DNA of 64,000 bases, from contig CAUJDF010000041.1 in NCBI GenBank assembly GCA_963169045.1, positions 2,872 through 66,871 on the forward strand. Reading direction: 5' to 3'. Under the pieces are notes generated by a model. It did no database searches and was not told where the DNA came from. It saw nothing but the letters and a program-made list of their open reading frames with translations. The stretch comes from Myxococcota bacterium (lineage in GTDB: Bacteria; Myxococcota_A; Bradymonadia; UBA7976; UBA1532). Each line of letters starts with the position of its first letter. Positions within the stretch are counted from its first letter, which is position 1. The position numbers and the translations under genes are program-made. Of the stretch, positions 28,638 through 42,486 are shown one piece after another.

Positions 28638-28652
28638 GCAACGCGGAGGCGG

Positions 28653-28793: not shown

Positions 28794-28838
28794 GATGTTT
28801 TGTTGGAGAATTCCGCCGGAGAGCGAATCTCGAAGATG

Positions 28839-29579: not shown

Positions 29580-29580
29580 G

Positions 29581-30279
29581 TCAGCCGATTTCGTCGTGGA
29601 GGGCGGTGATCGCGGCCTGCCAGTCGGCCGCGGCCACGATTGGGCGGCCAACGACCAGAAGATCGGCGCCCGCCTCGATCGCGGCGCGCGGCGTCGCGGC
29701 ACGACGCTGGTCCCCCACTTCGAGGCCGGCGGGGCGGATACCGGGCGTTACGATCCGAAGGTCGGGCCCGTTCTCGGCGCGCAGCGCGGGGACCTCCATC
29801 GCGCTGCAGACGATGCCTCCGAGGCCAGTCTCGCGCGCGAGGCGAGCACGGGCGGCGACGACGGCGTCGATCGTCGTTGTGACGCCGACTTCGGCGAGGG
29901 CAGCGGCATCGAGGCTGGTGAGGACGGTCACGCCGAGCACGCAGACCTCGCCGCGGGCGGCTTCGGCCGCAGCGGTGAGCATCGCCCGCCCGCCCCCCGT
30001 GTGCACGGTGAGGTAGTCCGCGCCGACCCGAAGGAGGGCTTCGACGGCGCGACCGACGGTCTGCGGAATGTCGTGCAGCTTGAGGTCGAGGAAGACGGCC
30101 CGAGCGCCGGCTTCGCGGATGGCGGAGACAGCCGTGGGGCCATGGGCGCCGAAGAGCTCGAGGCCCACCTTGAACACGCGGAACGCGTCGCGCGTCCGCC
30201 GGACCCACTCCACCGCCGTCTCGAGCTGGCCTGTGTCGAGGGCGAGGCAGAGGCGATCGGCGGGCTTCACTCCGTCCAC
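29581..30279 (-). CDS. pyrF: orotidine 5'-phosphate decarboxylase
   Basis: 232 aa, LDLKLHDIPQTV active-site motif. Confidence 0.88.
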   Translation of the reverse strand: MDGVKPADRLCLALDTGQLETAVEWVRRTRDAFRVFKVGLELFGAHGPTAVSAIREAGARAVFLDLKLHDIPQTVGRAVEALLRVGADYLTVHTGGGRAMLTAAAEAARGEVCVLGVTVLTSLDAAALAEVGVTTTIDAVVAARARLARETGLGGIVCSAMEVPALRAENGPDLRIVTPGIRPAGLEVGDQRRAATPRAAIEAGADLLVVGRPIVAAADWQAAITALHDEIG

Positions 30280-31973
30280 TCGGCCACGCGGCGGGCGATG
30301 TCGGCGAGGGGCACCTGCTGGACCTCACTCGATCGTCGAGGCTTCAGCTCGACGACGCCGTCCTTCAGGCCGCGCCCCCCAATCGCCACGCGAAGTGGAA
30401 TCCCGAGGAGATCCGCATCTTTGAACTTCACACCGGCGCGCTCGTCCCGGTCGTCGAGCAGCACCTCGACGCCCGCCGCCTGCAGGTCGGCGTACAGCTT
30501 CTCGGCGGCCTGAACGACGTCGGGAACGTTCATCTGCAATGGGAGGACGATGACGCGATAGGGCGCGATGGCGAGCGGCCAGACGATGCCGTCGGCGTCG
30601 TGGTTCTGCTCGATGGCGGCGGCCATGGTGCGGGTGACGCCAATGCCGTAGCAGCCCATGACCATCGGCCTCTCGACGCCGGACTCGTCGAGGTAGGTGC
30701 ACTTCATCGCGTCGCTGTACTTGGTGCCGAGGAAGAAGACGTGACCCACCTCGATGCCGCGGAAGCTCTTCAGCTCGCCGCCGCAGCGCGGGCATGGGTC
30801 GCCTTCGACGGCGAGCCGGAGGTCTCCGAAGCGAGTGACCTGGAAGTCGCGGCCTTCCGTGACGTCGACGAAGTGGTGGTCGTCGGCGTTGGCGCCGGCC
30901 ACCGCGTGCGTCATGCCACGGACGGCGTTGTCGGCGAGGATGCCGACGACGCCGCGCAGGCCGACGGGGCCGGCGAAGCCCACCGCGGCGCCGGTGGCGG
31001 TGCGCACCTGCTCCTCGTGCGCCAGGTCGACGCGCTGCGCCCCGAGCAGCTTCTTGACCTTGATGAGGTTCAGCTCGTGGTCGCCCCGGACGAGGACCGC
31101 GAAGAGGCGATCGTCGGCGTCGACGATCAGCGTCTTGATGAACTGGCGCGCGGGCCGGCGCAAGTAGTCCGTGACTTCAGCGATCGTGCGACGATTGGGC
31201 GTGTGGACCCGCTCGTAGGCCTTCTCGGCGACGGCGGGCGGCGGTTCGTGGTGCAGATGCAGCTCCGCCTGCTCGACGTTGGCGGCATAGGAGCATTGAG
31301 CGCAGCTGACGATCGCGTCCTCGCCGCTGGAGGCCAGCACCTGGAACTCGTGGCTGCGGCTGCCGCCGATGGAACCCGTGTCGGCCTCGACGGCGCGGAA
31401 CTGCAGGCCGCACCGGGCGAAGATGCGCTCGTATGCCGCGTACATCGCGTCGTAGCTTCGATTCGTGGCGGCGTCGTCGACGTCGAAGGAGTATGCGTCC
31501 TTCATGACGAACTCGCGGCCGCGCATCAGCCCGAAGCGCGGCCGGACCTCGTCACGGAACTTGGTCTGGATCTGGTAGAGGTTCAGGGGCAACGAGCGCC
31601 ACGACCGAACGTCGCGCTTCACGAGGTCGACGATGACCTCTTCGTGCGTCGGGCCGAGGCAGAAGTCGCCGCCCTTGCGATCCTTGAAGCGCAGCAACTC
31701 GGGGCCGTACTGGAACCAGCGGCCGGATTCCTGCCAGACCTCCGCCGGCACGACCGCCGGCAGGAAGACCTCCTGCGCGCCGGCGGCGTCCATCTCCTCG
31801 CGAATGATCGTCTCGATCTTGCGAACGACGCGCTTCGCCAGCGGCAGGAAGTCGTAGATGCCGGCGGCGAGCTTGCGGATGTAGCCGGCGCGGACGAGCA
31901 GCTGGTGGCTGACCACCTCCGCGTCCTTCGGTACTTCCTTGAGCGTCGGGGCGTGGAGACGGCTCAGGCGCAT
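30267..31973 (-). CDS. proS: proline--tRNA ligase
   Basis: Class II aaRS; start MRLSRLHAPTLKEVPKDAEVVSHQLLVRAGYIRK. Confidence 0.9.
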   Translation of the reverse strand: MRLSRLHAPTLKEVPKDAEVVSHQLLVRAGYIRKLAAGIYDFLPLAKRVVRKIETIIREEMDAAGAQEVFLPAVVPAEVWQESGRWFQYGPELLRFKDRKGGDFCLGPTHEEVIVDLVKRDVRSWRSLPLNLYQIQTKFRDEVRPRFGLMRGREFVMKDAYSFDVDDAATNRSYDAMYAAYERIFARCGLQFRAVEADTGSIGGSRSHEFQVLASSGEDAIVSCAQCSYAANVEQAELHLHHEPPPAVAEKAYERVHTPNRRTIAEVTDYLRRPARQFIKTLIVDADDRLFAVLVRGDHELNLIKVKKLLGAQRVDLAHEEQVRTATGAAVGFAGPVGLRGVVGILADNAVRGMTHAVAGANADDHHFVDVTEGRDFQVTRFGDLRLAVEGDPCPRCGGELKSFRGIEVGHVFFLGTKYSDAMKCTYLDESGVERPMVMGCYGIGVTRTMAAAIEQNHDADGIVWPLAIAPYRVIVLPLQMNVPDVVQAAEKLYADLQAAGVEVLLDDRDERAGVKFKDADLLGIPLRVAIGGRGLKDGVVELKPRRSSEVQQVPLADIARRVAEWTE

Positions 31974-32035
31974 GGCGGGATCCTCCCGTTCGGAGGCGCG
32001 CATTTAGCACACGCGTCCGCCGGCAGCAAGGCGGC

Positions 32036-33160
32036 CTAGGCGAGCGCGTCGACCAGAGCGGCGGTGCGATGCGCGGCCCGACCGTCGCCGAACTGGTCGA
32101 TGCGGGGCGCCGTCGTGGGCGCCGCGGAGCGGACGGCGCTCACGAGCGCCTCGGGATCGTCGCCGACGAGCGTGTTCCAGGCGCCCTCGAGCGTCTCGGG
32201 CCACTCGGTGCGATCTCGCAGGGTGATGCAGCGACGGCCGGCGAAGTAGGCCTCCTTCTGGACGCCGCCCGAGTCGGTGAGGACGAGGCCCGCCCCCTCG
32301 AGCAGCGCGGCGAAGGCGAGGTAGCCCACCGGGTCGACACAGGCGACGGACGGCGACGGCTCGATGCCGGCGCGCTCCATGGCCTTGCGCGTCCGGGGGT
32401 GCACGGGGAAGAGCACCGGCAGCGGCAGGCGACCGAGCGCCGAGACGAGGGCCCGGAGGCGCGAAGGATCGTCGGTGTTCGCGGCCCGGTGGATGGTGGC
32501 CAGCGCGTAGGCGCCCGGCCGCGCGGCCTCGGGCGGGAGCGCGTCGAGGGGCGCCGGCGCCGGGGTCGTCGGCGCGCCGGCCAGGTGACGACCCACCGGC
32601 GTGAGCTCGCGGGCGCGGGCCGCCTGCTGGCGGGCAACATCGAGCATGACGTCGCCGGTGTCGGTGACGCCGCGCGTCAGGCCCTCGCGAGCGAGCTGCT
32701 CGACGGCCCGCGCCGTCGGGCAAAGGAGGGCGTCCGCCAGGTGATCGGCGACGACGCGGTTGATTTCCTCCGGCATCGAGCGGTCGTAGCTGCGCAGGCC
32801 AGCCTCGACGTGGGCCACACGCCAGCCGAGTTTCGACGCGGCGAGTGCGCCGGCGACCGTGGAGTTGGTGTCGCCATAGACGACGACCACGCCGGGCGAC
32901 GACGCCAGCAGCACCTGCTCGATGGCCGCCAGCATGGCGCCCGTCTGGGCACCATGGGGACCGCTGCCGACGCCGAGGTGATGGTGCGGCGCGGGAATGG
33001 CCAGTTCCTCGAAGAACACGGCGGACATCGAAGCGTCGTAGTGCTGTCCGGTGTGCACCAGCACGTTGCGCTCGGGACGCGGCGCCGCGGCGAGCACCAC
33101 CGCCGCCTTCACGAACTGGGGGCGCGCACCCACGATGTGAACGATCGGAGACTCGGCCAC
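32036..33160 (-). CDS. wecB: UDP-N-acetylglucosamine 2-epimerase (non-hydrolysing)
   Basis: C-terminal 375 aa of ORF 32036..33697 matches WecB (HIVGARPQFVKAA..., HVEAGLRS); upstream 170 codons are R/P/A frame noise; GTG start with AGGAGGAGG. Confidence 0.8.
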   Translation of the reverse strand: MAESPIVHIVGARPQFVKAAVVLAAAPRPERNVLVHTGQHYDASMSAVFFEELAIPAPHHHLGVGSGPHGAQTGAMLAAIEQVLLASSPGVVVVYGDTNSTVAGALAASKLGWRVAHVEAGLRSYDRSMPEEINRVVADHLADALLCPTARAVEQLAREGLTRGVTDTGDVMLDVARQQAARARELTPVGRHLAGAPTTPAPAPLDALPPEAARPGAYALATIHRAANTDDPSRLRALVSALGRLPLPVLFPVHPRTRKAMERAGIEPSPSVACVDPVGYLAFAALLEGAGLVLTDSGGVQKEAYFAGRRCITLRDRTEWPETLEGAWNTLVGDDPEALVSAVRSAAPTTAPRIDQFGDGRAAHRTAALVDALA

Positions 33161-33195
33161 GGTTCCTCCTCCTGATTCCTGTCCCGCGCAGGCCC

Positions 33196-34509
33196 TCAGA
33201 GCAGGCGGACGAGGTGGTCCTTGATCACGTTGCGCATCGAGGCCTCCGGGCAGACGGCCAACGCCTGCTGCCACATTTCGATGGCTTTCTGAACGAAACC
33301 GTTCGCCTGATAAAGGATGGCGAGATCCTTGATGGCCGGAAAGAACGACGCGTCCAGGCTGACCGCTCGTTCGTACTCGTACATGGCGTCGAAGGTCCGA
33401 CCCCGGCGTTCGTGGATCTTGCCCAGGTAGAACCGCGGACGGGCCGCGTTCGGATCGGCCTGCGCGCTGCGCGCGAGCGCTTCGGCGGCGCCGTCCAGGT
33501 CGCCCCTCTGCAGCAACATCAAACCGGCGTTGAGCTCCCGCAGGGCGTCGGCGACGAGGGAGCGCGTGGTGCGCGCCGCGTCGCGGCGCGACGACAGCAG
33601 CGCTTCGACCCGTTCGCGGAGGCGATCCACGTCGAAGGGCTTCTCGACGAAGTCGTCCGCGCCGCACTGCTGGAGGAGGTCGGCGCGCATCTGCCATCCC
33701 CGATAGGCGCCGCTGAGGATGACGACGATGGTCCGACGGAGCGCGTCGGAGTGCTTGATGCGACGACAGATCTCGAAGCCGTGGAGGCCGGGCAGGCGCG
33801 CGTCGAGGAGCACGACATCGGGGCGCTCCGTGTGCACCCGCGCGAGGGCCGCGTCTCCATCACCGCACGTGACGAGCCGCCAGCGGCTCGGATCGAAGAT
33901 GCCTTCGTAGATCCGCAGGATCGCCGCGTCGTCGTCGACCGCGAGCACCAGCGGTCCCTCCGCGACGACGGGTGTCGGGTCGGCCGCGATCGCGAAGGGC
34001 GGCAACGTCGACTCCGGCGGAAGAGGGGCGACGGGGATGTCCGGACTCACCGGCCGTGGCTCGAGGGTGATGGCCGGAGCGTCGGCCTGCTGCTCGGCGA
34101 TGGCGCGATGGAGGGGGCCCGCCAGCGCGACGAGCGGCCGTAGGACCTTTCCCGTCCGCGCCTGTAGCTCCGCCAGCAGCGCGGCGTCGGCGGGATCGGA
34201 CATCAGGACCGTCAGCGTCCGATTGAACACCCGGATCGGCAGGACGGAGGCGCGCGCCGCCGTCGCCCGATCGACCACGTCTCGCGCCCCCGCGTCCGGG
34301 CGCGCCTCGCCGACGACCATGCCAGGCACGCCGAGCTGACGGCTCAGGATGCGCACGAGCGCCCGCTCGTCGGCCAGCCCGAGGCGGAGTGCGACCGAAC
34401 AGAAGCGACCGCCGTCCCGCGACTGCGCGTCGAGGACGGCATGGACGTCGTGGTCGAGGAGAACGCCGGCGTCGATGAGGAGCCGACCGACCTTTGGCCG
34501 TGGGGCCAC
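33196..34509 (-). CDS. response-regulator protein: MshEN/T2SS-E N-terminal-like domain + REC receiver + C-terminal TPR repeats
   Basis: 437 aa; N-term GVLLDHDVHAVLDAQ...; REC VLAVDDD...VVLLDARLPGLHGFE; TPR-like AMYEYERAVSLD. Confidence 0.6.
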   Translation of the reverse strand: MAPRPKVGRLLIDAGVLLDHDVHAVLDAQSRDGGRFCSVALRLGLADERALVRILSRQLGVPGMVVGEARPDAGARDVVDRATAARASVLPIRVFNRTLTVLMSDPADAALLAELQARTGKVLRPLVALAGPLHRAIAEQQADAPAITLEPRPVSPDIPVAPLPPESTLPPFAIAADPTPVVAEGPLVLAVDDDAAILRIYEGIFDPSRWRLVTCGDGDAALARVHTERPDVVLLDARLPGLHGFEICRRIKHSDALRRTIVVILSGAYRGWQMRADLLQQCGADDFVEKPFDVDRLRERVEALLSSRRDAARTTRSLVADALRELNAGLMLLQRGDLDGAAEALARSAQADPNAARPRFYLGKIHERRGRTFDAMYEYERAVSLDASFFPAIKDLAILYQANGFVQKAIEMWQQALAVCPEASMRNVIKDHLVRLL

Positions 34510-34510
34510 C

Positions 34511-36121
34511 TCAGCTCACCGGCTGACCGACGCGCCACACGGTCTGGCCGAGCATCACCGCGTCGCCGATTGCGAGCTGCCGGCGGCCGATTACGCGGAT
34601 CCACGTTCCGTTGCGGCTGGACAGGTCGCGCAACAGGAACCCGTCGCCCCGGGGCACGACCAGAGCGTGCGTTCCGCTCATGAACCCGTCGTCGGTGAAG
34701 ACGACGTCGGCGATGTGACGACCCAGTCGGCACCCCTCGGCGGAGACGTGATACACGTCGCGGTCTTCGCCGTCGTCCCCGAGCTGGACGAGTCTTGCGC
34801 CGTCGACGGGGCGTGGAGCGCCCAAACGGCGCGTCCCGTCGGACGTCTCGCCGCCGTTGCCGGCTCGGATGCGCTCCGCCCGCAGGATCTGACGCCCCAC
34901 CATGAAGGTCTCGCCGTCGCGCAGCAGCGCGTCCTTGCGAACGCGCAGCCACACCCCGTTGAGGCTCGAGAGATCCTCGACGAAGAGGCCGCGGTCGTCG
35001 GCGAGGAAGGCCGCGTGGTGGGGGGAGAGGTAACGATCGTCGCCGACCTCCACGTCTGCGTCGGCGCGGCCGATGACGACCGGCTGGTCACCCACCGGCA
35101 CGAGGCGGCTGACGGCCACGTTGTTGGAGAGGGGGCGAAGCACGTAGCGGGCGACGAGCGCCGGCAAGGGGGGCGGCAGCGGGCGCGAGGGGGTATCCAC
35201 CGCCTCGAACTCGCCGCTGTCGAGCATCGTCGCCTCGCCGCCCGGCCCCTCGTCGAGGTCGGAGGCGGAGAGCTCCTCGGCCTCGAAGTCGGCTTCGTCG
35301 CGCAGCACGGGCTCGGGGACCGGCGCGGACGGCTCGGCTTGGGACGGCGCCTCGGCGGGACCGGTCTCCGGTTCGAGGTCGACGGAGTCGTAGTCGCCGG
35401 TGTCGTTCAGGAGGCGATCGGCCTCCTCGTCGACAGATTCTCCTGGAATTTCGAGCGCGTCGTCGAAGTCCGGCGCCTCGGCTTCGTCGCCAGCGTCGTG
35501 CTCCTCCTCGATGCCGTCGGCGCTCGAGCCGAGGTCGTCTTCGACCACCTCTTCGTCCAGCGTGACGAGCGCCGCCACGAGCGGGACCGGCGGCGCCAGG
35601 AGGGTGACCGAGGGCCCCGTCGCGCGCGGCGCCTCGTTCAGCGTCGGCGGCCCTCCGACGGCGTCGCGCGCGAACGCCAGCGCAGCCTCGCCCAGCCCGA
35701 CGATCGCCGAGCCTCCGTCGGCGTCTTCGTCGTGCGGGTCGGAGGCCGGATCGGCGCTCGGCTCGACGGCGTCGCCGGCGGCGGGTGCGAGCGCGTCGTC
35801 GGCGACCGCATCGTCGCCGGGCAGGGGCGACTGGTTCGCGCGCAGCTCGGCGAGCACCGCCTGGAGGCTGAAGTCGATGAGCGTGGCCTGCGCCTCGCGG
35901 GGCGAAGGACCGGGAGGCGAACGGAGCGGCGGCAGCGGCTCGTCGACGTCCGCCAGCACGGGGCGCGCCGCCTCGAGCGAGCGGAAGCGACGCACGGCGC
36001 CGGAGGGCGCGCTCTCGGTGGCGTCACCGCCGGGCCGGGAACGGCCGAGGCCCCGCCCGCAGTTCGTACAGAACGCTGCCTCGGCAGGGTTGTCCCAACC
36101 GCAATGTCGACAGACGATCAT
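34511..36121 (-). CDS. zinc-ribbon + disordered acidic linker + tandem FHA-domain protein
   Basis: 536 aa: N-term CRHCG...CTNCG; two FHA cores (VIGRADADVEV...SSLNGVWL; LGRHIADVVF...SSRNGTWI). Confidence 0.7.
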   Translation of the reverse strand: MIVCRHCGWDNPAEAAFCTNCGRGLGRSRPGGDATESAPSGAVRRFRSLEAARPVLADVDEPLPPLRSPPGPSPREAQATLIDFSLQAVLAELRANQSPLPGDDAVADDALAPAAGDAVEPSADPASDPHDEDADGGSAIVGLGEAALAFARDAVGGPPTLNEAPRATGPSVTLLAPPVPLVAALVTLDEEVVEDDLGSSADGIEEEHDAGDEAEAPDFDDALEIPGESVDEEADRLLNDTGDYDSVDLEPETGPAEAPSQAEPSAPVPEPVLRDEADFEAEELSASDLDEGPGGEATMLDSGEFEAVDTPSRPLPPPLPALVARYVLRPLSNNVAVSRLVPVGDQPVVIGRADADVEVGDDRYLSPHHAAFLADDRGLFVEDLSSLNGVWLRVRKDALLRDGETFMVGRQILRAERIRAGNGGETSDGTRRLGAPRPVDGARLVQLGDDGEDRDVYHVSAEGCRLGRHIADVVFTDDGFMSGTHALVVPRGDGFLLRDLSSRNGTWIRVIGRRQLAIGDAVMLGQTVWRVGQPVS

Positions 36122-36273
36122 CGACCTGCTTCGCGGATACGAACGGGACCCGCCCTGAAATCGGGACGCGGGACGGCCGTTTCCCTCGGACTCAATTACC
36201 CGACCCCATCGGGGGGGTCAAGGTGGACGCCGGCCTTGCGCTCCTCGCCCGGCACGTGGGAAGGAAGCGCACC

Positions 36274-37533
36274 ATGAAATTGTCCGTCTTGTTCGTCGTC
36301 GGGAGCCTGCTGTTCGCCGCGTGCGGCGCCGGGCCTTCCCGTGCTCGCAGCGAGGCGGACGACGATGCCGGCGTCCCCGCAACGACGCTCGACGGCAGCG
36401 CCGTCTCATCGCCGGGAGGCGAGCCGACCGACGACGGGCCTTCGCCCGAGACACCGGCGCCGGACGTCGAGGCGCCGCCCGCCATCTTCGGCCTCGTGCT
36501 GCCGCTCGAGGGGCGCTCCCGCCTGCTCGGGCAGCAGATCGCCGGCGCGGCTCAGGTGATGTTCGCCGGCGACGCGGAGGACCTCCCGGCGGAGGCGCCG
36601 CAGCTGCGGGTGCTCGATGGCGGTGACGCCGAGACCGCTCGGCGGGCGATCGCGCGCCTCGCTGAGGACGAGCACGCATTCGCCGCGGTCGGCCTCTTCG
36701 ACCAGACCGTGTCGCAGGCGGCGGCCGAGGCGGCGGCGGAGCACCGGCTGCCCCTGATCATGCTCACGTTGAGCGATGCGCCGATGCAGCGGGAGGGCCT
36801 GCTGTGGCGCGCGCTCCACACGCCGGCGCTCGCCGCGGGGACGGTCGCTCGGGCCGGCCTCGCGCGCGGCGGACGGCAGGCGGCGATCCTCGCGCCGCGC
36901 AATGGCTACGGCCGCGCGCTGGCCGCGGCGTTTCGCGACGCCTGGGAGGCCGGCGGCGGCGCCGTCGTCTACGAAGCAGGCTGGGAGCCGGCGAAGCCCG
37001 AGTGGCCAGGCGTCGCGCGCGCAGCGAGGGCGGCCCCGTTCGACACCCTGTTCATCGCCGACGGGCCCGTGGGGGCCGCGCTGCTCAGCTCGCACCTCGC
37101 AGCCGAGGACCTCTGGTCTCGGGGCCGCGAGCCGCGTTTCAAGCGGGACAAGAAGGTGCGCGAGGTGCAGGTGCTCGGGACGCCGGAGTGGTACGAGCCG
37201 GCGCTGCTCAGCCAGGCGGGGCGCTATCTCGAAGGCGCGCTCGTGCCGGTGCCGTTCGCCGCCGAGGTGCCGTCGGGCGCGGCCTTCGCGGCCCGGCTGC
37301 GGGGGGCGGCGGACCGCGAGCCGACCGCGTTCGACGCGCTGGTCGCCGACGGGCTCGCCGCCTGCCAGCAGGCCCACGCCCGTCTCGCCGCGGGCGCCGC
37401 GAGCGTCGCCGATGCGTTCGCCGGCGTCCGCGTGGCCGGGGCCTCAGCCGGCCTGCGCCTCGATCGGCGGGACGCCCTCGAGCGCCTCCACCTGCTCGAG
37501 GTTCGCGGCGGCGCCTTCATCCCAGCGGAATAG
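36274..37533 (+). CDS. periplasmic-binding-protein (LivK/ABC type I PBP)-like lipoprotein
   Basis: Start MKLSVLFVVGSLLFAACG (lipobox) after GGAAGGAAG; ORF track begins 36223 with alternative start. Confidence 0.55.
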   Translation: MKLSVLFVVGSLLFAACGAGPSRARSEADDDAGVPATTLDGSAVSSPGGEPTDDGPSPETPAPDVEAPPAIFGLVLPLEGRSRLLGQQIAGAAQVMFAGDAEDLPAEAPQLRVLDGGDAETARRAIARLAEDEHAFAAVGLFDQTVSQAAAEAAAEHRLPLIMLTLSDAPMQREGLLWRALHTPALAAGTVARAGLARGGRQAAILAPRNGYGRALAAAFRDAWEAGGGAVVYEAGWEPAKPEWPGVARAARAAPFDTLFIADGPVGAALLSSHLAAEDLWSRGREPRFKRDKKVREVQVLGTPEWYEPALLSQAGRYLEGALVPVPFAAEVPSGAAFAARLRGAADREPTAFDALVADGLAACQQAHARLAAGAASVADAFAGVRVAGASAGLRLDRRDALERLHLLEVRGGAFIPAE

Positions 37534-37534
37534 T

Positions 37535-38623
37535 TCAGAAAAGCCGCAAGTACCAGGCCGCGCCGGCTGCCGCCCCCGACACGGCGAGCATGCCGAAGAG
37601 CAGCAGCATGAGGAGCGAGCGACGCGCCGCGACGCGCGCCGACGGCGAGACGGACGCGGCGGCGAGCGGATCGCCGCCGGCCCAGGCGGGCTCGAGGTCC
37701 GGCGCGGGCGTCTCGCCGAGCGTCCATTCGCCGTCGCCCGGCGCCGGCGTGACCGCCCGCTCCACGAGCGCCGCGACGTCGCGCGCGCTCGAGGTGCCGA
37801 AGCGGGGACCGGAAGCGGCGAGGAGCGCGTGCAGGAACGCCTCGGGGTCGGAGTAGCGGCGTTCGCGGTCGGGCTCGAGCGCCTGCAGGACGGCGCGGTC
37901 GAGGTCCGGCGGCACGTCAGGCACGAGCACCGAGGGCGGTGCGGGCCGATCGGGAGAGGGCACCGCGCCCGTCATCAGCTCGTAGAGCAGCGCGCCGACG
38001 GCGTGGACGTCCGTCCGAGCATCGGCGGCCTGTCCGGCGCGCTGCTCCGGCGCGCGCTGCACCCGCTCGCCGCGGCCGTCGGAGACGTCGAAGACCGCCA
38101 GCTTCACCTGGCCGTCGCGCGACAGGCGCACCGTCGAGAGGCGCACATCGGCGTGCACGAACGCCAGCGGATGGCCGGCGGCATCGGTCGCGCGGTGCGC
38201 GTAGTCGAGCGCCTTGAGCACTGCCGCGGCGACGCCCACCGCAAGGGGGATCGACAGATGCGGAATTCCGCGACGCCGGAGGCGCGCGAGCAGGGTGGCC
38301 AGGTCGGGACCGTCGACGGCCTCGAGCACGGCGACGGGCCCCTGCCCGTCTCGGGCGCAGTCGATGACCTGGACGATGTTGGCGTGCGTCAGACGCGCCG
38401 CGAGGCGCGCGCGATCGACGAACGCGCGCAAGCGGGCGGGGTCTCTGGTGGCCCGAGGCGTGAGGCGGTGGAAGACCACGGGTCGGACGAAGCCGTCGGC
38501 CCCGCGCAGCTCGCCCCGCAGCACTTCGACGTCGCCGGTCGCGCCGATGCGCTCGCCGAAGACGTACCGACCGGGGTCGAACGACGACGGGAGCGTGGTC
38601 GGGCCACTGGGCGGCCACGCCAT
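37535..38623 (-). CDS. membrane-anchored Ser/Thr protein kinase-like protein, probable pseudokinase
   Basis: 362 aa with kinase-like fold (HADV catalytic-loop remnant, APE, YELMTG) but no VAIK lysine and degenerate G-loop/DFG; C-terminal TM helix; GAGGAGG RBS. Confidence 0.6.
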   Translation of the reverse strand: MAWPPSGPTTLPSSFDPGRYVFGERIGATGDVEVLRGELRGADGFVRPVVFHRLTPRATRDPARLRAFVDRARLAARLTHANIVQVIDCARDGQGPVAVLEAVDGPDLATLLARLRRRGIPHLSIPLAVGVAAAVLKALDYAHRATDAAGHPLAFVHADVRLSTVRLSRDGQVKLAVFDVSDGRGERVQRAPEQRAGQAADARTDVHAVGALLYELMTGAVPSPDRPAPPSVLVPDVPPDLDRAVLQALEPDRERRYSDPEAFLHALLAASGPRFGTSSARDVAALVERAVTPAPGDGEWTLGETPAPDLEPAWAGGDPLAAASVSPSARVAARRSLLMLLLFGMLAVSGAAAGAAWYLRLF

Positions 38624-38761
38624 GTGAACGTCCTCCTCGTCCCCCCCACGGGACGGCCGGACCGGACGACCGGGTCCACCGAACGCTTGATGATGCCCCG
38701 GTCCGAAACCGGGTGGCGGTTTATATCACGGCGTGACGGGGCCGCGGCAGGCCTTTCTTGG

Positions 38762-41194
38762 TCAGGCGGGCACCGGCGCGTCGGACGATCCGGCGGACTC
38801 GACGGGCTCCGGGGCGGGCTCCGGCGCCGCACTCGCCTGCCGCTGGCCGATGAGCGCCACCTCGAAGGCTTCGTCGACGCGCTCGATCAGGTGGAACGTC
38901 GTGACGTCACGCACTTCGGCGGGCACCTCCACGAGGTCCTTCTCATTGGCGCGGGGCAGGATGACGTGACGAATGCCGGCGCGATAGGCCGCCAGCAGCT
39001 TGTCTTTGATGCCGCCGACAGCCAGCACCTTGCCGCGCAGCGTGACCTCGCCGGTCATCGCCACGTCGCGGCGCACCGGCAGCCCCGACATCAGGCTGGT
39101 GAGGGCCAGCGTGACCGCGACGCCTGCCGAGGGGCCGTCCTTGGGCACCGCGCCCGCCGGAAAGTGGATGTGGATGTCGTGCGCGTCGAGGTCGGGCACC
39201 TCGGCGCCGAGCGTCTGGGCCCGCGAGCGCGCGAAGGAGTGCGCGGCCTGGACCGACTCCTTCATCACCTCGCCCAGCTTGCCGGTGATGACCAGCTTGC
39301 CGCGCCCGGGGGTGCGCAGGGCCTCGATGACGAGGATCTCGCCGCCGGTCGACGTCCACGCGAGGCCGTTGACGACGCCCACTTCGTCGCGGTCGACCGC
39401 CTCGTCGTGGAGGAACTTCCGCGGTCCGAGGTAGTCGGGCACCTCGTCCGGCCCGATGGCGGCCGCGACCGGCTCGCCGCCGGCTTCGACCTGGTTGCGC
39501 GCCACCTTGCGGCACATCTTCTCGAGGCTGCGCTGGAAGTTGCGGACCCCGGCCTCGCGCGTCCAGTAGCGGACGACGTCGCGCAGCGCGTCGTCGCTGA
39601 CCTCGGGCGGGTGCGCGAGCAGGCCGTGCTCGCGCACGACCTTCGGCACCAGGTGGCGCCGGGCGATCGCCAGCTTCTCGGTCTCGGTGTAGCCCTCGAT
39701 CGAGATGACCTCGAGGCGGTCCAGCAGCGGCTTGGGCATGTCGTGCAGGTAGTTGCCCGTCACGACGAACATGACCTTCGACAGATCGAAGGGCACGTTG
39801 AAGTAGTGATCGACGAAGGCGTTGTTCTGCTCGGGATCGAGCACCTCGAGCAGCGCGGCCGCCGGATCGCCGCGGTGATCGCTGCCGATCTTGTCGATCT
39901 CGTCCAGCATCAGCAGTGGGTTCATGCAGCCGGCGCGGGTGAGGCCGTTGAGGATCTTGCCCGGCAGCGCGCCCACGTAGGTGCGTCGGTGCCCGCGGAT
40001 CTCCGCCTCGTCGCGCACACCGCCGACGCTGATGCGGAAGAAGCGGCGCCCGATGGCCTCGGCGATCGCGCGGCCGAGGCTGGTCTTGCCGACGCCCGGC
40101 GGGCCGGCGAAGCACAGGATCGGGCCCTTGTGGTCCGGGTTCAGCTTGCGGACGGCCAGGAACTCGAGGATGCGCTCCTTGACCGAGTCGAGGCCGTAGT
40201 GACCGTCGTCGAGGGCGCCCCGGACGCGGTGGAGATCGATGTCCTCCTCGGTGACCACGCCCCAGGGCAGCGCGAAGAAGCGGTCGAGGTACGTCTTGAT
40301 GACCTGGTACTCGCTGGCGCTCGGCTGGATGTGGCGCAGGCGCTCGATCTCGCGCTGGGCCTCGCGCGCAATCTCGTCGCCGAGGTTCAGCGCCTCGAGG
40401 CGACGCGCGTAGTCGTCGGCCTCCTTGCGATTGAGCTCCTCCTCGCCGAGCTCCTTCTGGATGGTCTTCATCTGCTGGCGCAGGAAGTACTCGCGCCGCG
40501 AGTCCTCGATGTCGCCCTTTGCGCGCTTCTCGACCTCCTGGGCGACCTTCACCCGGTCGAGCTCGCTGCGCAGCAGCTCCACCACCCGCTGCAGGCGCTG
40601 CTCGATGCCGACCGCCTGGAGGACCTTCTGCTTCTCGGCGTACTCGAAGTTGAGCGAAGAGCACAGCAGGTCGGCGAACCGGCCTGGGGCGTCGACGTTC
40701 ATCTTCAGGATGTGGATCAGCTCCTTCGGGTAGTTGGCGCTGTTGCCGACGAGCCGCTCGAAGAACGTGATCGCCTTCTGCACGAGCATGTTGACCTTGT
40801 AGGGGTCGGTGATCTGCTCGCGGATGTCCGCCACGTGGGCGGTGAAGAACGGCTTTTCTTGAAGGATCTCGAGGATGCGCACGCGGCGCAGCCCCTGGAA
40901 CGTGACCTGATAGCTGCCGCCGGGAAGCTTGAGGCGGTCGAGGACGCGGCTGACGACGGCGACCTCGGAGAGGATCTCCTTGCGGATCTCGCCGCCGCCG
41001 GTGGCGTCCGCGAAGGCCAGGGCGATGACCGTGTCCGGCTCGGGATTGGCCTTGAGGAGCGAGATGTTCTCCTCGAAGCCCACCTGCACGGTCGCCACGC
41101 CCTGCGGGTAGATGACCGTCGAGAGCAACGCCATCACGGGGATCGGGTCGGGGATGATCAGATCCGAGGACTCACCCCGACGAGCGGCAGCCAT
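38762..41194 (-). CDS. lon: ATP-dependent Lon protease
   Basis: 810 aa: Lon N-domain, AAA+ GPPGVGKTSLGRAIAEA, S16 protease PKDGPSAGVA. Confidence 0.93.
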   Translation of the reverse strand: MAAARRGESSDLIIPDPIPVMALLSTVIYPQGVATVQVGFEENISLLKANPEPDTVIALAFADATGGGEIRKEILSEVAVVSRVLDRLKLPGGSYQVTFQGLRRVRILEILQEKPFFTAHVADIREQITDPYKVNMLVQKAITFFERLVGNSANYPKELIHILKMNVDAPGRFADLLCSSLNFEYAEKQKVLQAVGIEQRLQRVVELLRSELDRVKVAQEVEKRAKGDIEDSRREYFLRQQMKTIQKELGEEELNRKEADDYARRLEALNLGDEIAREAQREIERLRHIQPSASEYQVIKTYLDRFFALPWGVVTEEDIDLHRVRGALDDGHYGLDSVKERILEFLAVRKLNPDHKGPILCFAGPPGVGKTSLGRAIAEAIGRRFFRISVGGVRDEAEIRGHRRTYVGALPGKILNGLTRAGCMNPLLMLDEIDKIGSDHRGDPAAALLEVLDPEQNNAFVDHYFNVPFDLSKVMFVVTGNYLHDMPKPLLDRLEVISIEGYTETEKLAIARRHLVPKVVREHGLLAHPPEVSDDALRDVVRYWTREAGVRNFQRSLEKMCRKVARNQVEAGGEPVAAAIGPDEVPDYLGPRKFLHDEAVDRDEVGVVNGLAWTSTGGEILVIEALRTPGRGKLVITGKLGEVMKESVQAAHSFARSRAQTLGAEVPDLDAHDIHIHFPAGAVPKDGPSAGVAVTLALTSLMSGLPVRRDVAMTGEVTLRGKVLAVGGIKDKLLAAYRAGIRHVILPRANEKDLVEVPAEVRDVTTFHLIERVDEAFEVALIGQRQASAAPEPAPEPVESAGSSDAPVPA

Positions 41195-41385
41195 GGAACC
41201 TCCAGTGCGGGTGGGGCGGCGGACCGCCTCCGCATACTCATGCCGGGTCGATGCGATCGAAGCAAGGGCAGCCCCCGGGCATCGCCCGCAGGGGCGCAGC
41301 AGGCGGCGCCGGGTGCCATTGTTGCGAAAGCGGCCCCTGTAGTACGTTCGCAGCCCGTGACCCCTTGAATCAGGGACGGAATTCC

Positions 41386-42486
41386 ATGTGTGACGGAAGA
41401 GTCTCGGCGATCGGGCTGGCGCTGTTGCTCGCGGCCTGCGGTGGTGGCGGCGGTGACGACAACGGCGCCGGCGGAGCGGGCGGCGGCATGGGCGGCGCCG
41501 GCGGCATGGGCGGCGCCGGCGGCATGGGCGGCGCCGGCGGCATGGGCGGCGCCGGCGGCATGGGCGGCGGCGGCGGTGGCGAGCTGCCCACCGAGGAGCG
41601 CTGTCCCGACGCGCAGCAGGGCAACTACCTGCTCGTCCAGTACCCCGACCGCGTCGATGCCTACCGGCACCGCGCCGGCTTCAACTTCACCTACGAGTGC
41701 GTCTTCCTCGACCTCGCCGCCAACGGCATCTCCGAGGCCCGCGGCGTCGCCCGCGTGCCGGTGCCCGACGGCGACTTCGTCGTCGTGGTGCCCGAGGGTG
41801 AGAAGGGCGCGCTCTACCGCTTCAACGCGCGCGGCGAGTTCCAGGGCAAGAGCGGCGACAACATCAATCTCGCCGGCGTCGACGGCATCTGGAACACCTT
41901 CGGCGACGACTTCGTCGTGTGGAGCCGCGCCAACTCGAACATCTACTCCGTCAGCTCGACGGGGCTGTTCCGGGGCACCTACCGCCTGCCCGGCTTCCAG
42001 GGATCGCGCCTCGACAACCTGACCGACCTCCTCTTCGTGAAGCAGGACGCGATCATCGCGACCTTCTCCGACAAACCGGCGAAACTCTTCGTGAATCCGG
42101 CGTCTCAGAACTTCCCGGCCGACGAGGTGGGACCGGCGAACGCGGTCGTGGGCGTCGAGACGCAGGAGGGCCTGAAGACGCTGATGACGGCGCAGGTCGG
42201 CGGCGAGGGGAACGGCTACGGCGTCGTGCTGTACAAGCCGGTGGTCCGCGTCCAGATCGCGCCCGAACGGGAGGGCGTCATCGTCGATGCCAGCGAGATC
42301 ACGGACGGCATCGACATCCTGCCCATGAACAGCCCGTCGGGCATCCTCGTGCTCGACAGCCGCCTCGGCGGGACGCCCAAGGTGCAGGCGTTCAACGTGG
42401 TGGGCGAGCACCAGGGCGACCTGACGCTCATGGGCGACGGCGACCCCCGCCAGATGCTGTTCGAAGAGGTCTTCCCCGGCTTCTGA
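41386..42486 (+). CDS. hypothetical secreted lipoprotein with Gly-rich (GGAGGMG)x5 linker
   Basis: Start MCDGRVSAIGLALLLAACGGGGGDDNGAGG...; ORF track starts upstream at 41251. Confidence 0.6.
   Translation: MCDGRVSAIGLALLLAACGGGGGDDNGAGGAGGGMGGAGGMGGAGGMGGAGGMGGAGGMGGGGGGELPTEERCPDAQQGNYLLVQYPDRVDAYRHRAGFNFTYECVFLDLAANGISEARGVARVPVPDGDFVVVVPEGEKGALYRFNARGEFQGKSGDNINLAGVDGIWNTFGDDFVVWSRANSNIYSVSSTGLFRGTYRLPGFQGSRLDNLTDLLFVKQDAIIATFSDKPAKLFVNPASQNFPADEVGPANAVVGVETQEGLKTLMTAQVGGEGNGYGVVLYKPVVRVQIAPEREGVIVDASEITDGIDILPMNSPSGILVLDSRLGGTPKVQAFNVVGEHQGDLTLMGDGDPRQMLFEEVFPGF
41482..41586 (+). repeat. perfect 21-nt tandem repeat x5 (ggcggcatgggcggcgccggc) inside lipoprotein gene
   Basis: Directly visible; encodes GGAGGMG heptapeptide repeats. 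Confidence 0.85.

Follow-up and report, generated by a model that had tools for sequence, protein, structure and literature searches.

Four adjacent signalling genes of a freshwater myxobacterium, perhaps a mosaic of intact parts rather than one machine

Introduction

Myxococcota are very rich in signalling genes, and the locus studied here raises the question of whether four such genes that lie side by side act together. It is part of a window (the whole stretch of DNA analyzed, 64,000 nucleotides) from an uncultured freshwater myxobacterium. An earlier note had recognized a response regulator, a protein with two FHA domains, a lipoprotein and a kinase-fold protein at this locus and had proposed that they form an STK/FHA-type sensory module in which ligand sensing and the FHA scaffold meet a pseudokinase. 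Our analysis confirmed that the four signalling genes are real and were correctly described. As to their joint role, we favour, at a probability of roughly 0.55, the reading of the region as an evolutionary mosaic, made of signalling parts that are each intact, and not as a dedicated four-component machine. All functional readings given below are drawn from sequence.

Gene content and layout of the locus

The GC3 analysis of the window revealed that positions 33196-38623 hold exactly four real open reading frames, with GC3 values of 0.87-0.91. The gene models of the response regulator (RR), the FHA protein, the pseudokinase and a neighbouring epimerase were reproduced by an independent gene caller in another assembly from this organism (L166), in which the lipoprotein was called with 419 amino acids versus 420 in the window. 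Domain calls were scored against the curated Pfam cut-offs, and every named domain exceeded its cut-off. The genes and their context are as follows.

38762..41194, minus strand: full-length LonA protease, left border of the neighbourhood (Pfam)
37535..38623, minus strand: tail-anchored pseudokinase, 362 aa (Pfam, PknB alignment, AlphaFold2, Foldseek)
36271..37533, plus strand: lipoprotein, 420 aa (Pfam, orthologue profile, lipobox)
36122..36270, no strand: divergent FHA-lipoprotein intergenic region, 149 bp (locus comparison)
34511..36121, minus strand: zinc-ribbon/acidic disordered linker/tandem FHA protein, 536 aa (Pfam, family alignment)
33196..34509, minus strand: RR, 437 aa, MshEN, disordered linker, REC and TPR (Pfam, family alignment, AlphaFold2, Foldseek)
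29581..33160, minus strand: wecB-like/proS/pyrF block, co-directional with the FHA and RR genes
32036-33160, minus strand: wecB-like UDP-GlcNAc 2-epimerase, GTG start behind AGGAGGAGG (Pfam)
30267-32003, minus strand: proS, context gene (Pfam)
29581-30279, minus strand: pyrF, context gene (Pfam)

The junction analysis assigned the four genes to three transcription directions or units, and they are thus not a single operon. The FHA and RR genes share direction and tight spacing with three housekeeping genes, wecB-like, proS and pyrF (35 nt from RR to wecB-like, 32 nt to proS, then an overlap). The pseudokinase gene lies 138 nt downstream of lon and converges on the lipoprotein gene, the two stop codons being 1 nt apart. 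The lipoprotein/FHA pair is located between lon and proS-pyrF, near the ribosomal/rpoBC/tuf core. Matches to a terminator-like consensus were not commoner than in shuffled sequence, and none fell at any gene junction. The gene calls across the window included none for a histidine kinase, an active STK, a PP2C phosphatase or GGDEF/EAL proteins, and no c-di-GMP enzyme, transmembrane relay, phosphatase, histidine kinase or active kinase was found at the locus. Remote zinc-ribbon/2xFHA relatives, by contrast, are found in complete kinase/phosphatase/FHA islands.

The FHA protein

The predicted architecture of two FHA domains behind a zinc ribbon and an acidic disordered linker was borne out by Pfam (FHA, 68.2 bits over two stretches, cut-off 20.7; Zn_Ribbon_1, 29.6 bits, cut-off 25) and by composition.

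36047..36121, minus strand: N-terminal CxxC...CxxC zinc ribbon, residues 1-25 (Zn_Ribbon_1)
35162..36031, minus strand: acidic low-complexity linker, residues 31-320 (composition)
35858..35884, minus strand: conserved linear motif T80-L-I-D83-F84 in the disordered linker (family alignment)
34877..35149, minus strand: FHA domain 1, about residues 325-415, with G351-R352, S366-x-x-H369 and N388-G389 (Pfam, alignment)
34526..34804, minus strand: FHA domain 2, about residues 440-532, with G467-R468, S482-x-x-H485 and N504-G505 (Pfam, alignment)

All 12 syntenic loci that were compared retain the zinc ribbon, C[RP]HCGW[ED]NPxxAAFCTNCG; L001, L006 and L008 show minor substitutions. The linker contains 24% Asp+Glu versus 4% Lys+Arg, resulting in a net charge of -58. 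All 52 family members share this acidity; the linker has no conserved transmembrane segment, and its length varies from 63 to 679 aa (mostly 240-530 aa), the shortest belonging to a truncated member of 308 aa. Embedded in it is a motif with the consensus P-T-L-[LV]-D-F-R-M-P-A, in which T80 is conserved in 50/50, D83 and F84 each in 49/50 and P87 in 45/50 sequences. T-L-x-D-F was present in 25 of the 40 top-ranked matches versus 2 of 110 lower-ranked representatives, which suggests that it is essentially specific to this orthologous group; it is a candidate phosphothreonine (pT-x-x-D) or docking site. N-terminal to FHA domain 1 lies an invariant proline-rich R..PPPLP segment. In domain 1, G351, S366, H369, N388 and G389 are found in 52/52 members and R352 in 49/52, and the corresponding G-R, S-x-x-H and N-G residues of domain 2 are invariant (52/52); by this alignment, both domains carry the canonical phosphothreonine-binding residues.

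Only 1 nt separates the stop codon of the FHA gene from the RR start, a gap compatible with translational coupling. Besides the window itself, such a tight junction occurs in L166 (the other assembly) and L001 alone; elsewhere, the two genes are separated by 100-700 nt or by an inserted gene.

The divergent lipoprotein

That a lipoprotein resembling periplasmic binding proteins is transcribed divergently from the FHA gene was established by Pfam (Peripla_BP_6, 74.6 bits, cut-off 31.7) and the gene map. Its signal peptide ends in the lipobox FAAC (Cys17 at 36319-36321), and lipoboxes are also present in its orthologues. Its start is probably ATG 36271 rather than GTG 36223, since the closest relative does not share this GTG. 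The lipobox is followed by a Pro/Asp/Ala-rich tether of about 55 aa and a type-I periplasmic-binding-protein fold (36484-37509). The intergenic region towards the FHA gene is 90% identical to that of L081, which is unexceptional because control intergenic regions are similarly conserved.

The response regulator

A receiver domain flanked by an MshEN-like domain and TPRs had been proposed, and this was upheld by Pfam scores above the cut-offs (Response_reg, 81.7 versus 30.2 bits; MshEN, 38.8 versus 23.1; TPR_2, 43 versus 27) and by concordant folds in the AlphaFold2 model (pLDDT 87.8) and its Foldseek matches, which included c-di-GMP-bound MshE as well as REC and TPR structures. The protein is an orphan regulator devoid of a DNA-binding domain. 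Distant MshEN-REC-TPR homologues have the same architecture and unrelated neighbours.

34081..34509, minus strand: MshEN domain, residues 1-143, four-helix bundle plus alpha/beta subdomain
34423..34494, minus strand: c-di-GMP half-motif I, residues 6-29, KVGRLLIDAGVLLDHDVHAVLDAQ (motif match)
34336..34407, minus strand: c-di-GMP half-motif II, residues 35-58, RFCSVALRLGLADERALVRILSRQ (motif match)
33568..33951, minus strand: REC receiver domain, residues 187-314, complete phospho-acceptor set
33202..33561, minus strand: TPR domain, residues 317-436, presumed protein-binding output (Pfam TPR_2/TPR_11)

The MshEN domain aligned with 5HTL_B (MshE with c-di-GMP) at a TM(target) of 0.68 over 137 columns (Foldseek E-value, 3.8e-8), and residues 7-142 match the NCBIfam PilB N-terminus. 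Half-motif I fits the relaxed 24-residue MshEN c-di-GMP motif (PMC5013675) in full, and half-motif II, after the canonical spacer of 5 residues (24-5-24 layout), fits it apart from a Gly-to-Cys exchange at position 3. This Cys37 is near-invariant in the close RR family, and Gly at this position was found in 0 members of the wider family. The exchange could abolish c-di-GMP binding. In the receiver domain (TM(target) about 0.9 for its Foldseek matches), D192, D193, D236, S266 and K290 are invariant among 27 family members, and the aromatic switch residue, as read from the window sequence only, is F287. The TPR domain forms eight helices in the model and matches designed TPR proteins.

The pseudokinase

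The kinase-fold protein was identified by Pfam (Pkinase, 45.9 bits, cut-off 31.7) and by its AlphaFold2 model (pLDDT 84.9, pTM 0.76), which matched PknB with a Foldseek E-value of 3e-18.

37739..38566, minus strand: bilobal kinase fold, residues 20-295, degenerate motifs (PknB alignment, AlphaFold2, Foldseek)
37550..37621, minus strand: C-terminal transmembrane anchor, about residues 335-358 (hydropathy)

The alignment to PknB supports its designation as a pseudokinase. The beta3 lysine is replaced by His52 (VAIK to VVFH), as had been noted, but the degeneration was understated: the alphaC Glu is an Arg, HRD has become HAD (HADVRLST), the catalytic-loop Asn is a Thr and DFG is VFD. The Gly-loop reads GATGDV, and the activation loop is about 14 residues shorter with APE retained. 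Judged by these motifs, the protein is catalytically dead. Its membrane anchoring stands, but only as a C-terminal tail anchor (terminal helix 327-361 in the model) that is identical in P0095-P0097; since only about 4 residues (LRLF) follow it, there is no periplasmic domain. In one pairwise comparison with L081, in a genome with extreme codon bias, dN/dS amounted to 0.075 for Lon, 0.13 for FHA, 0.14 for the pseudokinase and 0.28 for the lipoprotein, which suggests that purifying selection continues to act on the dead copy, with fold and membrane anchor kept. Among relatives, kinase motifs range from canonical (L003/L004) through half-degenerate (L006, VVIRK/HGD/GFG) to the VVFH/H[AG]D/VFD of the window and P0095-97.

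Conservation across related loci

The synteny sample comprised 17 loci from related MAGs, and counts are limited to the loci that cover each gene. The genes do co-occur in the closest relatives; over the sample, this extends to the FHA/lipoprotein pair and, inside one clade, to FHA/RR. The lipoprotein gene is divergent from the FHA gene in 14/14 loci, the sole signalling pair that is always present, and this layout, with a spacer of 85-212 bp, persists down to 32-49% lipoprotein identity. The RR gene follows the FHA gene in 12 of 16 loci, all within a single clade (9/9 of the loci found via RR), and is present in 0/4 more distant loci that keep lon-lipoprotein-FHA-proS (L082-L085). A kinase or kinase-like gene occurs in 5 of 14 loci; the nine that lack it include five other RR-bearing loci. 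The epimerase was present in 6/11 loci, and a carbamoyltransferase-family gene is inserted between FHA and RR in four. All four genes share their layout with the closest relatives, L081 and L166. Whether RR was gained or lost was judged from the Lon neighbour-joining tree, a single-gene tree without support values: the loci without RR branch at its base, and the different kinase states occur scattered inside one subclade. The lon gene is adjacent in 14/14 loci. Since synteny extends over the entire lon...proS region in all relatives, housekeeping genes included, conservation by itself is no proof of functional coupling; the lipoprotein/FHA pair may owe its constancy to inertia of the core region rather than to co-function.

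Discussion

Could the genes, the lipoprotein/FHA pair included, then be neighbours by descent, members of unrelated pathways kept together by a rarely rearranged core region (lon...proS-pyrF-tuf-rpl-rpoBC)? This is possible but doubtful. It would account for the region-wide synteny, the shared direction of FHA and RR with wecB, proS and pyrF, the tolerated carbamoyltransferase-family gene and intergenic conservation not above controls, and it accords with the wealth of signalling genes in the phylum. Against it stand the divergent arrangement with its short spacer, kept at low lipoprotein identity, the constant position of RR beside the FHA gene in its clade and the 1-nt junction in the window.

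We consider it unlikely that the four genes form a single module in which the lipoprotein senses a ligand and signals through the membrane pseudokinase to the FHA scaffold and RR. All four parts are adjacent and intact, the layout is identical in L081 and L166, the pseudokinase appears to be under purifying selection, and there is a precedent in the actinobacterial GlnH-GlnX-PknG-GarA system (PMC8546545), which combines a binding-protein lipoprotein, a kinase with TPR and an FHA substrate. However, GlnX is a membrane relay, and no counterpart is encoded near the locus. With so few residues beyond its tail anchor, the pseudokinase offers no physical path by which ligand sensing could meet it. 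Moreover, it is catalytically dead here, the lipoprotein is of the LivJ-like type I, another binding-protein class than GlnH, and 9/14 loci with the lipoprotein/FHA pair lack the kinase gene, as 4/16 lack RR. An STK/FHA-type four-gene module was not substantiated, and no active kinase or PP2C was found at the locus.

Very unlikely is a controller of envelope growth, in which an LpoA-like lipoprotein activates a peptidoglycan synthase and FHA protein and pseudokinase act like mycobacterial FhaA/MviN. Besides the MviN-FhaA precedent and the wecB-like epimerase after RR, the lipoprotein matches Pfam LppC, the LpoA family (35.3 bits, cut-off 28.8), and its distant orthologues are arranged like LpoA (lipobox, then a helical N-domain of about 200 aa, then the binding-protein fold) and show a weak BamD/TPR-like match. 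In the window, however, the disordered tether replaces this N-domain, and the orthologue profile favours LivJ/aromatic-acid binding proteins in the PDB (6e-16) over LpoA (1e-4). Similarly, the NCBIfam model that fits the FHA region best is FhaB/FipA, but at 79 bits the match is below its 125-bit cut-off and domain-level only, and genes for a peptidoglycan synthase, MurJ or FtsW are absent from the vicinity. A kinase-based anti-phage island (PD-T4-6- or MADS-like) with a Lon-like protease is effectively refuted: the kinase-like protein matches the PADLOC PD-T4-6 models (100 bits) and mad6, and Lon weakly matches BrxL, but this is generic kinase/Lon homology, equal in strength to that with PknB-type models, the other three proteins have no PADLOC match, the kinase is dead, Lon is the full-length housekeeping LonA and the locus is core genome, syntenic across the clade.

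If the region is an evolutionary mosaic of intact parts, the always conserved lipoprotein and FHA adaptor emerge from the locus comparison as the ancestral unit. The orphan RR would have come to lie directly after the FHA gene in the window's clade, and a tail-anchored Hanks-type kinase would have settled between lon and the lipoprotein gene in a subclade, later dying in the window lineage. The FHA protein, a soluble cytoplasmic adaptor, may be a reader or scaffold of threonine phosphorylation written by kinases encoded elsewhere. Its T-L-x-D-F motif may be either a docking peptide or a phospho-switch that one of the protein's own FHA domains binds, in the manner of OdhI and of the intramolecular switch of GarA (PMC8546545). 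The pseudokinase could serve as a membrane-anchored, non-catalytic docking platform; in the precedent, the MviN pseudokinase recruits FhaA once phosphorylated in trans (PMC12599244). RR would combine two inputs, Asp phosphorylation by a histidine kinase that is not linked to the locus and, probably, c-di-GMP bound by MshEN; its output would be TPR-mediated protein binding, perhaps to the co-translated FHA protein. For the lipoprotein, a role in the envelope is most likely, either in ligand binding or in enzyme regulation, with no direct physical connection to the cytoplasmic proteins. Taken together, the parts of this locus represent uncharacterised variants of known signalling components.

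Gene order and transcription layout

Genes in the region, which lies in a window of ~68% GC, were picked out by third-position GC. The four genes are located immediately downstream of a tRNA cluster and of the core formed by the ribosomal-protein, rpoBC, and tuf-secE-nusG genes, and the segment is organized as follows.

29581-30279, minus strand: pyrF
30267-32003, minus strand: proS
32036-33160, minus strand: wecB-like epimerase
33196-34509, minus strand: response regulator with MshEN, receiver (REC), and TPR domains
34511-36121, minus strand: FHA protein with zinc ribbon, acidic linker, and two FHA domains
36271-37533, plus strand: lipoprotein with a periplasmic-binding-protein fold
37535-38623, minus strand: tail-anchored kinase-fold protein
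38762-41194, minus strand: LonA

For L166, another assembly from this organism, an independent gene-calling pipeline gave identical models for the response regulator, the FHA protein, the kinase-fold protein, and the epimerase, and a lipoprotein of 419 aa, one residue shorter than ours. The GTG at 36223 was rejected as the lipoprotein start because the nearest relative lacks this codon, which makes ATG 36271 the likely start.

On the minus strand, the response regulator gene starts 1 nt past the stop of the FHA gene (TGA-G-GTG), the epimerase gene starts 35 nt past the regulator stop and is preceded by AGGAGGAGG, proS follows 32 nt after the epimerase, and proS and pyrF overlap. The lipoprotein and FHA genes diverge from a spacer of 149 bp, and the kinase-fold gene begins 138 nt downstream of lon. 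The lipoprotein and kinase-fold genes run toward each other, and a single nucleotide separates their stop codons (37533-37535); this leaves no room for terminators, so that their transcripts must overlap or end within the opposite gene. A terminator scan of 29400-42600 returned 3 weak consensus matches, versus 3.2 expected from shuffled sequence; none was at a gene junction, and two were inside the regulator and kinase-fold coding sequences. A sigma-70 promoter scan returned zero matches, as expected at this GC content. Taken together, junctions and orientations place the four genes in three transcription directions, with the FHA and regulator genes in a string with housekeeping genes.

Exceptional conservation of the FHA/lipoprotein intergenic region was considered and rejected. 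Its identity to the closest relative (L081) is 90%, compared with 87% for the lon/kinase intergenic region and 82% for lon third positions; since these controls are conserved similarly, the identity was not taken as evidence for a special regulatory element at this spacer, and no inverted repeat was detected in it.

Elsewhere in the window, a cluster of four tRNA genes (Thr-GGT, Gly-TCC, Tyr-GTA, and Thr-TGT; 28203-28637, minus strand) lies between tuf and pyrF, and a plus-strand ORF overlapping it (28497-29480) is probably spurious. Two large ORFs with high GC3, at 45624-48326 (minus strand, 900 aa) and 53636-55615 (plus strand, 659 aa), had no Pfam match.

Conservation of the locus among relatives

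Among 5.8 billion clustered proteins, only ~30 are full-length close relatives of the response regulator, and every one of them comes from metagenomes or metagenome-assembled genomes labeled Myxococcales, Bradymonadia, or Nannocystaceae. Scanning 185,579 species-representative genomes yielded nine close loci (L001-L009; 45-58% identity) along with ~29 full-length homologues that are more distant (27-36%), and a metagenome scan with an FHA-protein profile retrieved mostly the remote tandem-FHA family and only two extra syntenic loci. Pooling L001-L009 with L081, L082-L085, and L086-L087 resulted in 17 syntenic loci.

Conservation of features (loci with the feature/loci covering the position)
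Lipoprotein gene divergent from FHA gene: 14/14
lon beyond the lipoprotein gene: 14/14
Response regulator gene after FHA gene: 12/16 (missing in L082-L085)
Kinase or kinase-like gene between lon and the lipoprotein gene: 5/14
Epimerase gene: 6/11
Carbamoyltransferase-family gene between FHA and regulator genes: 4 loci

This co-occurrence pattern identifies the lipoprotein/FHA pair as the constant unit. The loci that lack the regulator have the gene order miaE-lon-lipoprotein|FHA-proS-pyrF-spoU-tuf and are basal on a neighbor-joining tree of Lon, a single-gene tree without support values. Judged from these sequences, the regulator and the kinase are probably later additions, losses elsewhere being the less parsimonious reading. 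The earlier note had suggested an STK/FHA-type sensory module, to be refuted if the genes did not co-occur in relatives; co-occurrence holds for the lipoprotein/FHA pair, whereas the members of the full circuit are found together only in the nearest relatives. Adjacency alone cannot tell co-function from inertia, because the entire lon...proS stretch is syntenic. A reading of the locus as a defense island with an anti-phage function was rejected and is excluded for practical purposes.

The carbamoyltransferase-family gene, which is not present in the 64-kb window, was found at L002:2360-3283, L003:9030-9959, L004:9105-9971, and L006:9051-10004. Its product carries an STRTR signature, matches best YgeW and the N-acetylornithine, ornithine, and aspartate carbamoyltransferases, and scores under all NCBIfam equivalog cutoffs. 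The gene divergent from lon (41251-42486, plus strand; true start probably near 41.5 kb) encodes another lipoprotein, MCDGRVSAIGLALLLAAC..., which continues into Gly/Met/Ala-rich GGAGGMGG repeats and had no match in Pfam, NCBIfam, or PADLOC. It is kept beside lon in L001, L005, L006, L008, and L081-L086; in L082-L085, miaE, absent from the window, lies between the two.

The distant regulator homologues retain the MshEN-REC-TPR architecture in quite different neighborhoods. No conserved partner was found beside them, their neighbors being gpsA and genes for a Zn_ribbon_4/GYF_2 protein, an ABC1 kinase, and a LysM protein. At two of these loci (L010:11455-13140 and L013:11569-13539), proteins with Zn_ribbon_4 and GYF_2 domains directly follow the regulator homologue. 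Proline-rich peptides are the ligands of GYF domains, and the FHA protein of the window has a PPPLP segment and itself begins with a zinc ribbon; the similarity may be fortuitous, or regulators of this kind may repeatedly pair with zinc-ribbon proteins.

The lipoprotein and the FHA protein

In the lipoprotein, the lipobox (FAAC) is followed by a tether rich in Pro, Asp, and Ala and then by a type-I binding-protein fold. By sequence reading, the signal peptide and lipobox ([LVI][ASTVI][GAS]C) correspond to MKLSVLFVVGSLLFAAC in the window, and orthologues carry LIAC, LVAC, LSAC, or LAAC. Peripla_BP_6 was matched with 74.6 bits (cutoff 31.7), and a profile of ten orthologues searched against the PDB retrieved LivJ/aromatic-acid binding proteins as best matches (4EY3, 6e-16; 4EVQ, 5e-14). 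Like LpoA, the outer membrane activator of PBP1A, the lipoprotein has a C-terminal type-I fold and no ABC transporter partner: genes for ABC permeases or ATPases accompany it neither in the window nor in any of 14 related loci. Membership in the LpoA/LppC activators was nevertheless rejected, as LpoA (5KCN) was matched by the same profile at a marginal 1e-4, the LppC Pfam match overlaps the stronger Peripla_BP_6 match, and the window protein has no N-domain. Distant orthologues do possess an extra helical N-domain of ~200 aa in an LpoA-like layout, whereas the window clade has the disordered tether only.

The FHA protein comprises an N-terminal CxxC...CxxC ribbon, a linker of 290 residues, and two FHA domains (PF00498 in two stretches, 68.2 bits versus a cutoff of 20.7). 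In both domains, the G-R, S-x-x-H, and N-G loops are invariant in 52/52 family members, with the exception of R352 (49/52); since the loop residues are almost wholly invariant, both domains are predicted to bind phosphothreonine. The linker contains 24% Asp+Glu and 4% Lys+Arg (net charge -58) and is acidic in all 52 members, in which its length ranges from 63 aa (a truncated member of 308 aa) to 679 aa, mostly 240-530 aa. A transmembrane segment within the linker was rejected, because the weak hydrophobic patch at residues 170-189 is not conserved among 50 orthologues.

The linker contains a conserved motif, T-L-x-D-F, formed by T80 (50/50), L81, D83 (49/50), and F84 (49/50), with P87 in 45/50; a proline-rich segment, R..PPPLP, in which PPPLP is invariant, lies upstream of the first FHA domain. 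When 1.84 billion representatives were searched exhaustively, 1,228 tandem-FHA relatives were retrieved at E ≤ 1e-10. The majority have an N-terminal zinc ribbon (CxxC...CxxC in 75/110 lower-ranked representatives), whereas T-L-x-D-F is limited to the orthologous group (25/40 top matches versus 2/110 others). Some FHA domains prefer pT-x-x-D, a preference with which T80 and D83 (Asp at +3) agree. This suggests that T-L-x-D-F may be either a GarA-like cis switch or a docking peptide. The protein itself is not a member of the GarA/OdhI family, as the OdhI NCBIfam model scored 29 bits against a cutoff of 200.

FraH of Anabaena has a double zinc ribbon, a proline-rich region, and a C-terminal FHA domain, and the FHA protein shares with it and with the wider zinc-ribbon tandem-FHA superfamily an N-terminal zinc ribbon, a low-complexity linker, and C-terminal FHA domains. 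A literature search for a characterized myxobacterial zinc-ribbon/FHA protein yielded nothing usable. Remote relatives with a zinc ribbon and two FHA domains lack T-L-x-D-F, and their genes belong to complete islands whose other members encode PP2C, an FHA-ABC transporter, an FHA-GAF-cyclase, and an active PEGA-type kinase; unlike them, the window group is tied to lon/proS and the binding-protein lipoprotein, and neither a writer (active kinase) nor an eraser (phosphatase) was found at the window locus. Such islands are conserved on three contigs from peat or soil metagenomes (L100, L108, and L137) and include a PEGA-domain Ser/Thr kinase, an FHA-GAF-adenylate/guanylate cyclase, a trypsin-like protease, PP2C phosphatases, and an Rv1747-like transporter that combines a zinc ribbon, three FHA domains, and an ABC transporter.

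The kinase-fold protein is a pseudokinase

The kinase fold was supported by Pfam (Pkinase PF00069, 45.9 bits versus a cutoff of 31.7) and by an AF2 model (pLDDT 84.9, pTM 0.76), in which both lobes of the kinase fold are complete and lead into a disordered tether and then a terminal helix. The best Foldseek matches were PknB (E 3e-18, TM(target) ~0.8) and PknI. In the alignment with PknB, the Gly loop reads GATGDV, VAIK is replaced by VVFH (the beta3 Lys being His52), the αC Glu by Arg, and DFG by VFD; the catalytic loop is HADVRLST instead of HRDVKPAN, with Asn replaced by Thr and the HxD Asp retained; and the activation loop is ~14 residues shorter, with APE kept. With Lys, Glu, Asn, and the DFG Asp replaced and the HxD Asp as the sole retained catalytic residue, the protein was classified as a pseudokinase. 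The loss of the catalytic Lys had been recognized in the earlier note and is thus joined by further motif losses. The hydrophobic C-terminus (~335-358) is followed by just four residues, and the protein is therefore expected to have no periplasmic exposure.

Syntenic orthologues differ in their state. Those of L003 and L004 have canonical motifs (VVIKK, EEA, HRDVTPSN, DFG, and SPE), and that of L006 is half-degenerate (VVIRK, HGD, GFG, and a short loop). The VVFH/H[AG]D/VFD motifs and an identical membrane tail are common to the window, L081, and three close homologues (P0095-P0097). The nearest database relatives beyond these (32-37% identity) are active kinases with canonical motifs throughout. 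On the Lon tree, L006 clusters with the active L003/L004, apart from the window, which suggests that catalysis was lost more than once and that other branches lost the gene altogether. In the comparison of the window with L081, dN/dS was 0.14 for the pseudokinase (0.15 for its kinase-like part), 0.075 for lon, 0.13 for the FHA gene, and 0.28 for the lipoprotein gene. At the sequence level, the dead kinase is seen as maintained, not decaying. Its motif strings (VVFH/HADVRLST/VFD) are unlike the tabulated examples of the ActPs1-3, DLHK, GLW, CP1, and DYD classes (PMC12599244), a comparison of strings only. The juxtamembrane tail of the L006 kinase (4052-5518, plus strand) contains about ten tandem 9-residue repeats (GDPGDVTPS or GDRGDVTPS), each copy with a Thr-Pro.

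The response regulator

The model of the response regulator (pLDDT 87.8) contains three folded modules and a disordered segment at 145-181, and Foldseek retrieved c-di-GMP-bound MshE (5HTL_B; E 3.8e-8, 137 columns), many receivers, and designed TPRs. The MshEN domain (PF05157) scored 38.8 against a cutoff of 23.1, and a four-helix bundle (helices 7-13, 19-32, 36-42, and 48-59) with an alpha/beta subdomain is supported. The receiver scored 81.7 bits (PF00072, cutoff 30.2) and is similar to PhoB and Spo0F (TM(target) ~0.9 by Foldseek). Each of the domains named in the earlier note exceeds its curated Pfam threshold; NCBIfam had no model at cutoff for any of the four proteins.

The receiver residues D192, D193, D236, S266, and K290 are invariant in 27 sequences; because the catalytic set is complete and invariant in the family, the receiver is predicted to be phosphorylatable. 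Neither the genes called in the 64-kb window nor the related loci include a histidine kinase, and the regulator is thus an orphan. Its presumed output is the TPR domain, that is, protein binding and not DNA binding. In the receiver (33568-33951; residues 236-274), an invariant PGxHGFE[IV]CRRIK follows the phospho-acceptor Asp and an invariant S-[AG]-[AG]-YRGWQM follows the conserved Ser; both are atypical of receivers and may mark a dedicated interaction surface.

The N-terminus matches exactly the 24-5-24 layout defined for MshEN (PMC5013675). Motif I (residues 6-29) satisfies the relaxed motif, and so does motif II (residues 35-58) save for position 3, where Gly, the residue with the ligand-contacting backbone, is replaced by Cys. 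The strict motif is unmet (K for R, V for L, F for L, C for G, and A at two hydrophobic positions). The Cys is nearly invariant in the close family, the wider family has Cys, Ala, or Leu and never Gly, and both motifs are lost in many Anaeromyxobacteraceae homologues. Since motif I fits and motif II fits but for the Cys, c-di-GMP binding is plausible for the window protein; going by these motifs, the odds that it binds are about even. Many MshEN proteins of Myxococcota are uncharacterized, 17-22 of them in M. xanthus.

Comparison with known systems and proposed function

A closed circuit leading from the binding protein via the pseudokinase to the FHA protein, as put forward in the earlier note, is considered unlikely: there is neither the essential membrane relay nor an active kinase, and its members are found together no further than the nearest relatives. 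The locus resembles the actinobacterial GlnH-GlnX-PknG-GarA/OdhI pathway in its parts, namely, a solute-binding lipoprotein, a Ser/Thr-kinase fold, TPRs, a zinc module, and an FHA reader. However, nearby genes encode neither a GlnX-like relay nor any other multi-pass membrane protein, the kinase-fold protein is a dead enzyme with a tail anchor whereas PknG is soluble and active, the TPRs and zinc ribbon reside on the regulator and the FHA protein instead of the kinase, the lipoprotein is of type I (LivJ-like), unlike GlnH, and the FHA protein differs from GarA by its two FHA domains and 290-aa acidic linker. GarA is controlled through a Thr in its own N-terminus, which it binds once this residue is phosphorylated (Nott et al. 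2009, cited in PMC8546545; PMC6069109); T-L-x-D-F, being invariant, could plausibly be modeled on this switch.

In Mycobacterium tuberculosis, the pseudokinase of MviN (MurJ) is phosphorylated in trans by PknB and then recruits FhaA (PMC12599244). Both proteins are membrane-attached, non-catalytic kinase folds, but that of MviN is of the ActPs3 class (VALT/no HRD/Y--) and fused to a lipid II flippase, whereas ours (VVFH/HAD/VFD) stands alone, derives from an otherwise active kinase lineage, and has no flippase or wall-synthesis gene adjacent. The regulator shares the N-terminal MshEN fold and tandem 24-5-24 motif with Vibrio cholerae MshE, without an ATPase domain and with the Cys for Gly. MshEN-receiver fusions are a recognized architecture, and Bd2402 of Bdellovibrio binds c-di-GMP with a Kd of 0.4 uM (PMC5013675); orthology to Bd2402 was rejected because the domain order differs (REC-MshEN_N versus MshEN(N+C)-REC-TPR).

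On these grounds, the FHA protein would be a cytoplasmic reader and scaffold for phosphorylation written by kinases encoded elsewhere, and the pseudokinase, by analogy with MviN-FhaA, a non-catalytic membrane platform. The regulator would combine His-Asp and possibly c-di-GMP input and act via TPR binding, with the FHA protein translated alongside as a possible partner. The lipoprotein would act in the envelope, with no direct line to the cytoplasmic proteins. A bolder version, to which we assign a probability of roughly one in ten, is that the FHA protein, regulator, and dead kinase form a membrane-proximal hub joining three signaling currencies. A trans-acting kinase would phosphorylate Thr80 of T-L-x-D-F, the pseudokinase tail, or both; the two FHA domains would toggle between cis-binding (closed) and pseudokinase binding (open, membrane-recruited); the TPRs would dock on the FHA linker depending on Asp phosphorylation and c-di-GMP; and the series from kinase to pseudokinase in relatives would represent a writer turned into a pure scaffold.

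All domains and several pairings are known, and the parts are known domain types in an uncultured organism. Uncharacterized variants are the MshEN-REC-TPR architecture, the combination of a zinc ribbon, an acidic linker with T-L-x-D-F, and two FHA domains, and a tail-anchored pseudokinase from an active lineage. No paradigm is changed, and nothing in the locus should come as a strong surprise to those who specialize in myxobacterial signaling. If the proposed roles are correct, one syntenic position would offer a natural series (active, half-degenerate, dead but selected, and deleted) for studying the evolution of pseudokinase scaffolds, T-L-x-D-F would be a testable candidate phospho-switch in a widespread and unstudied zinc-ribbon/tandem-FHA family, and the MshEN-REC-TPR regulator could link c-di-GMP with His-Asp signaling.
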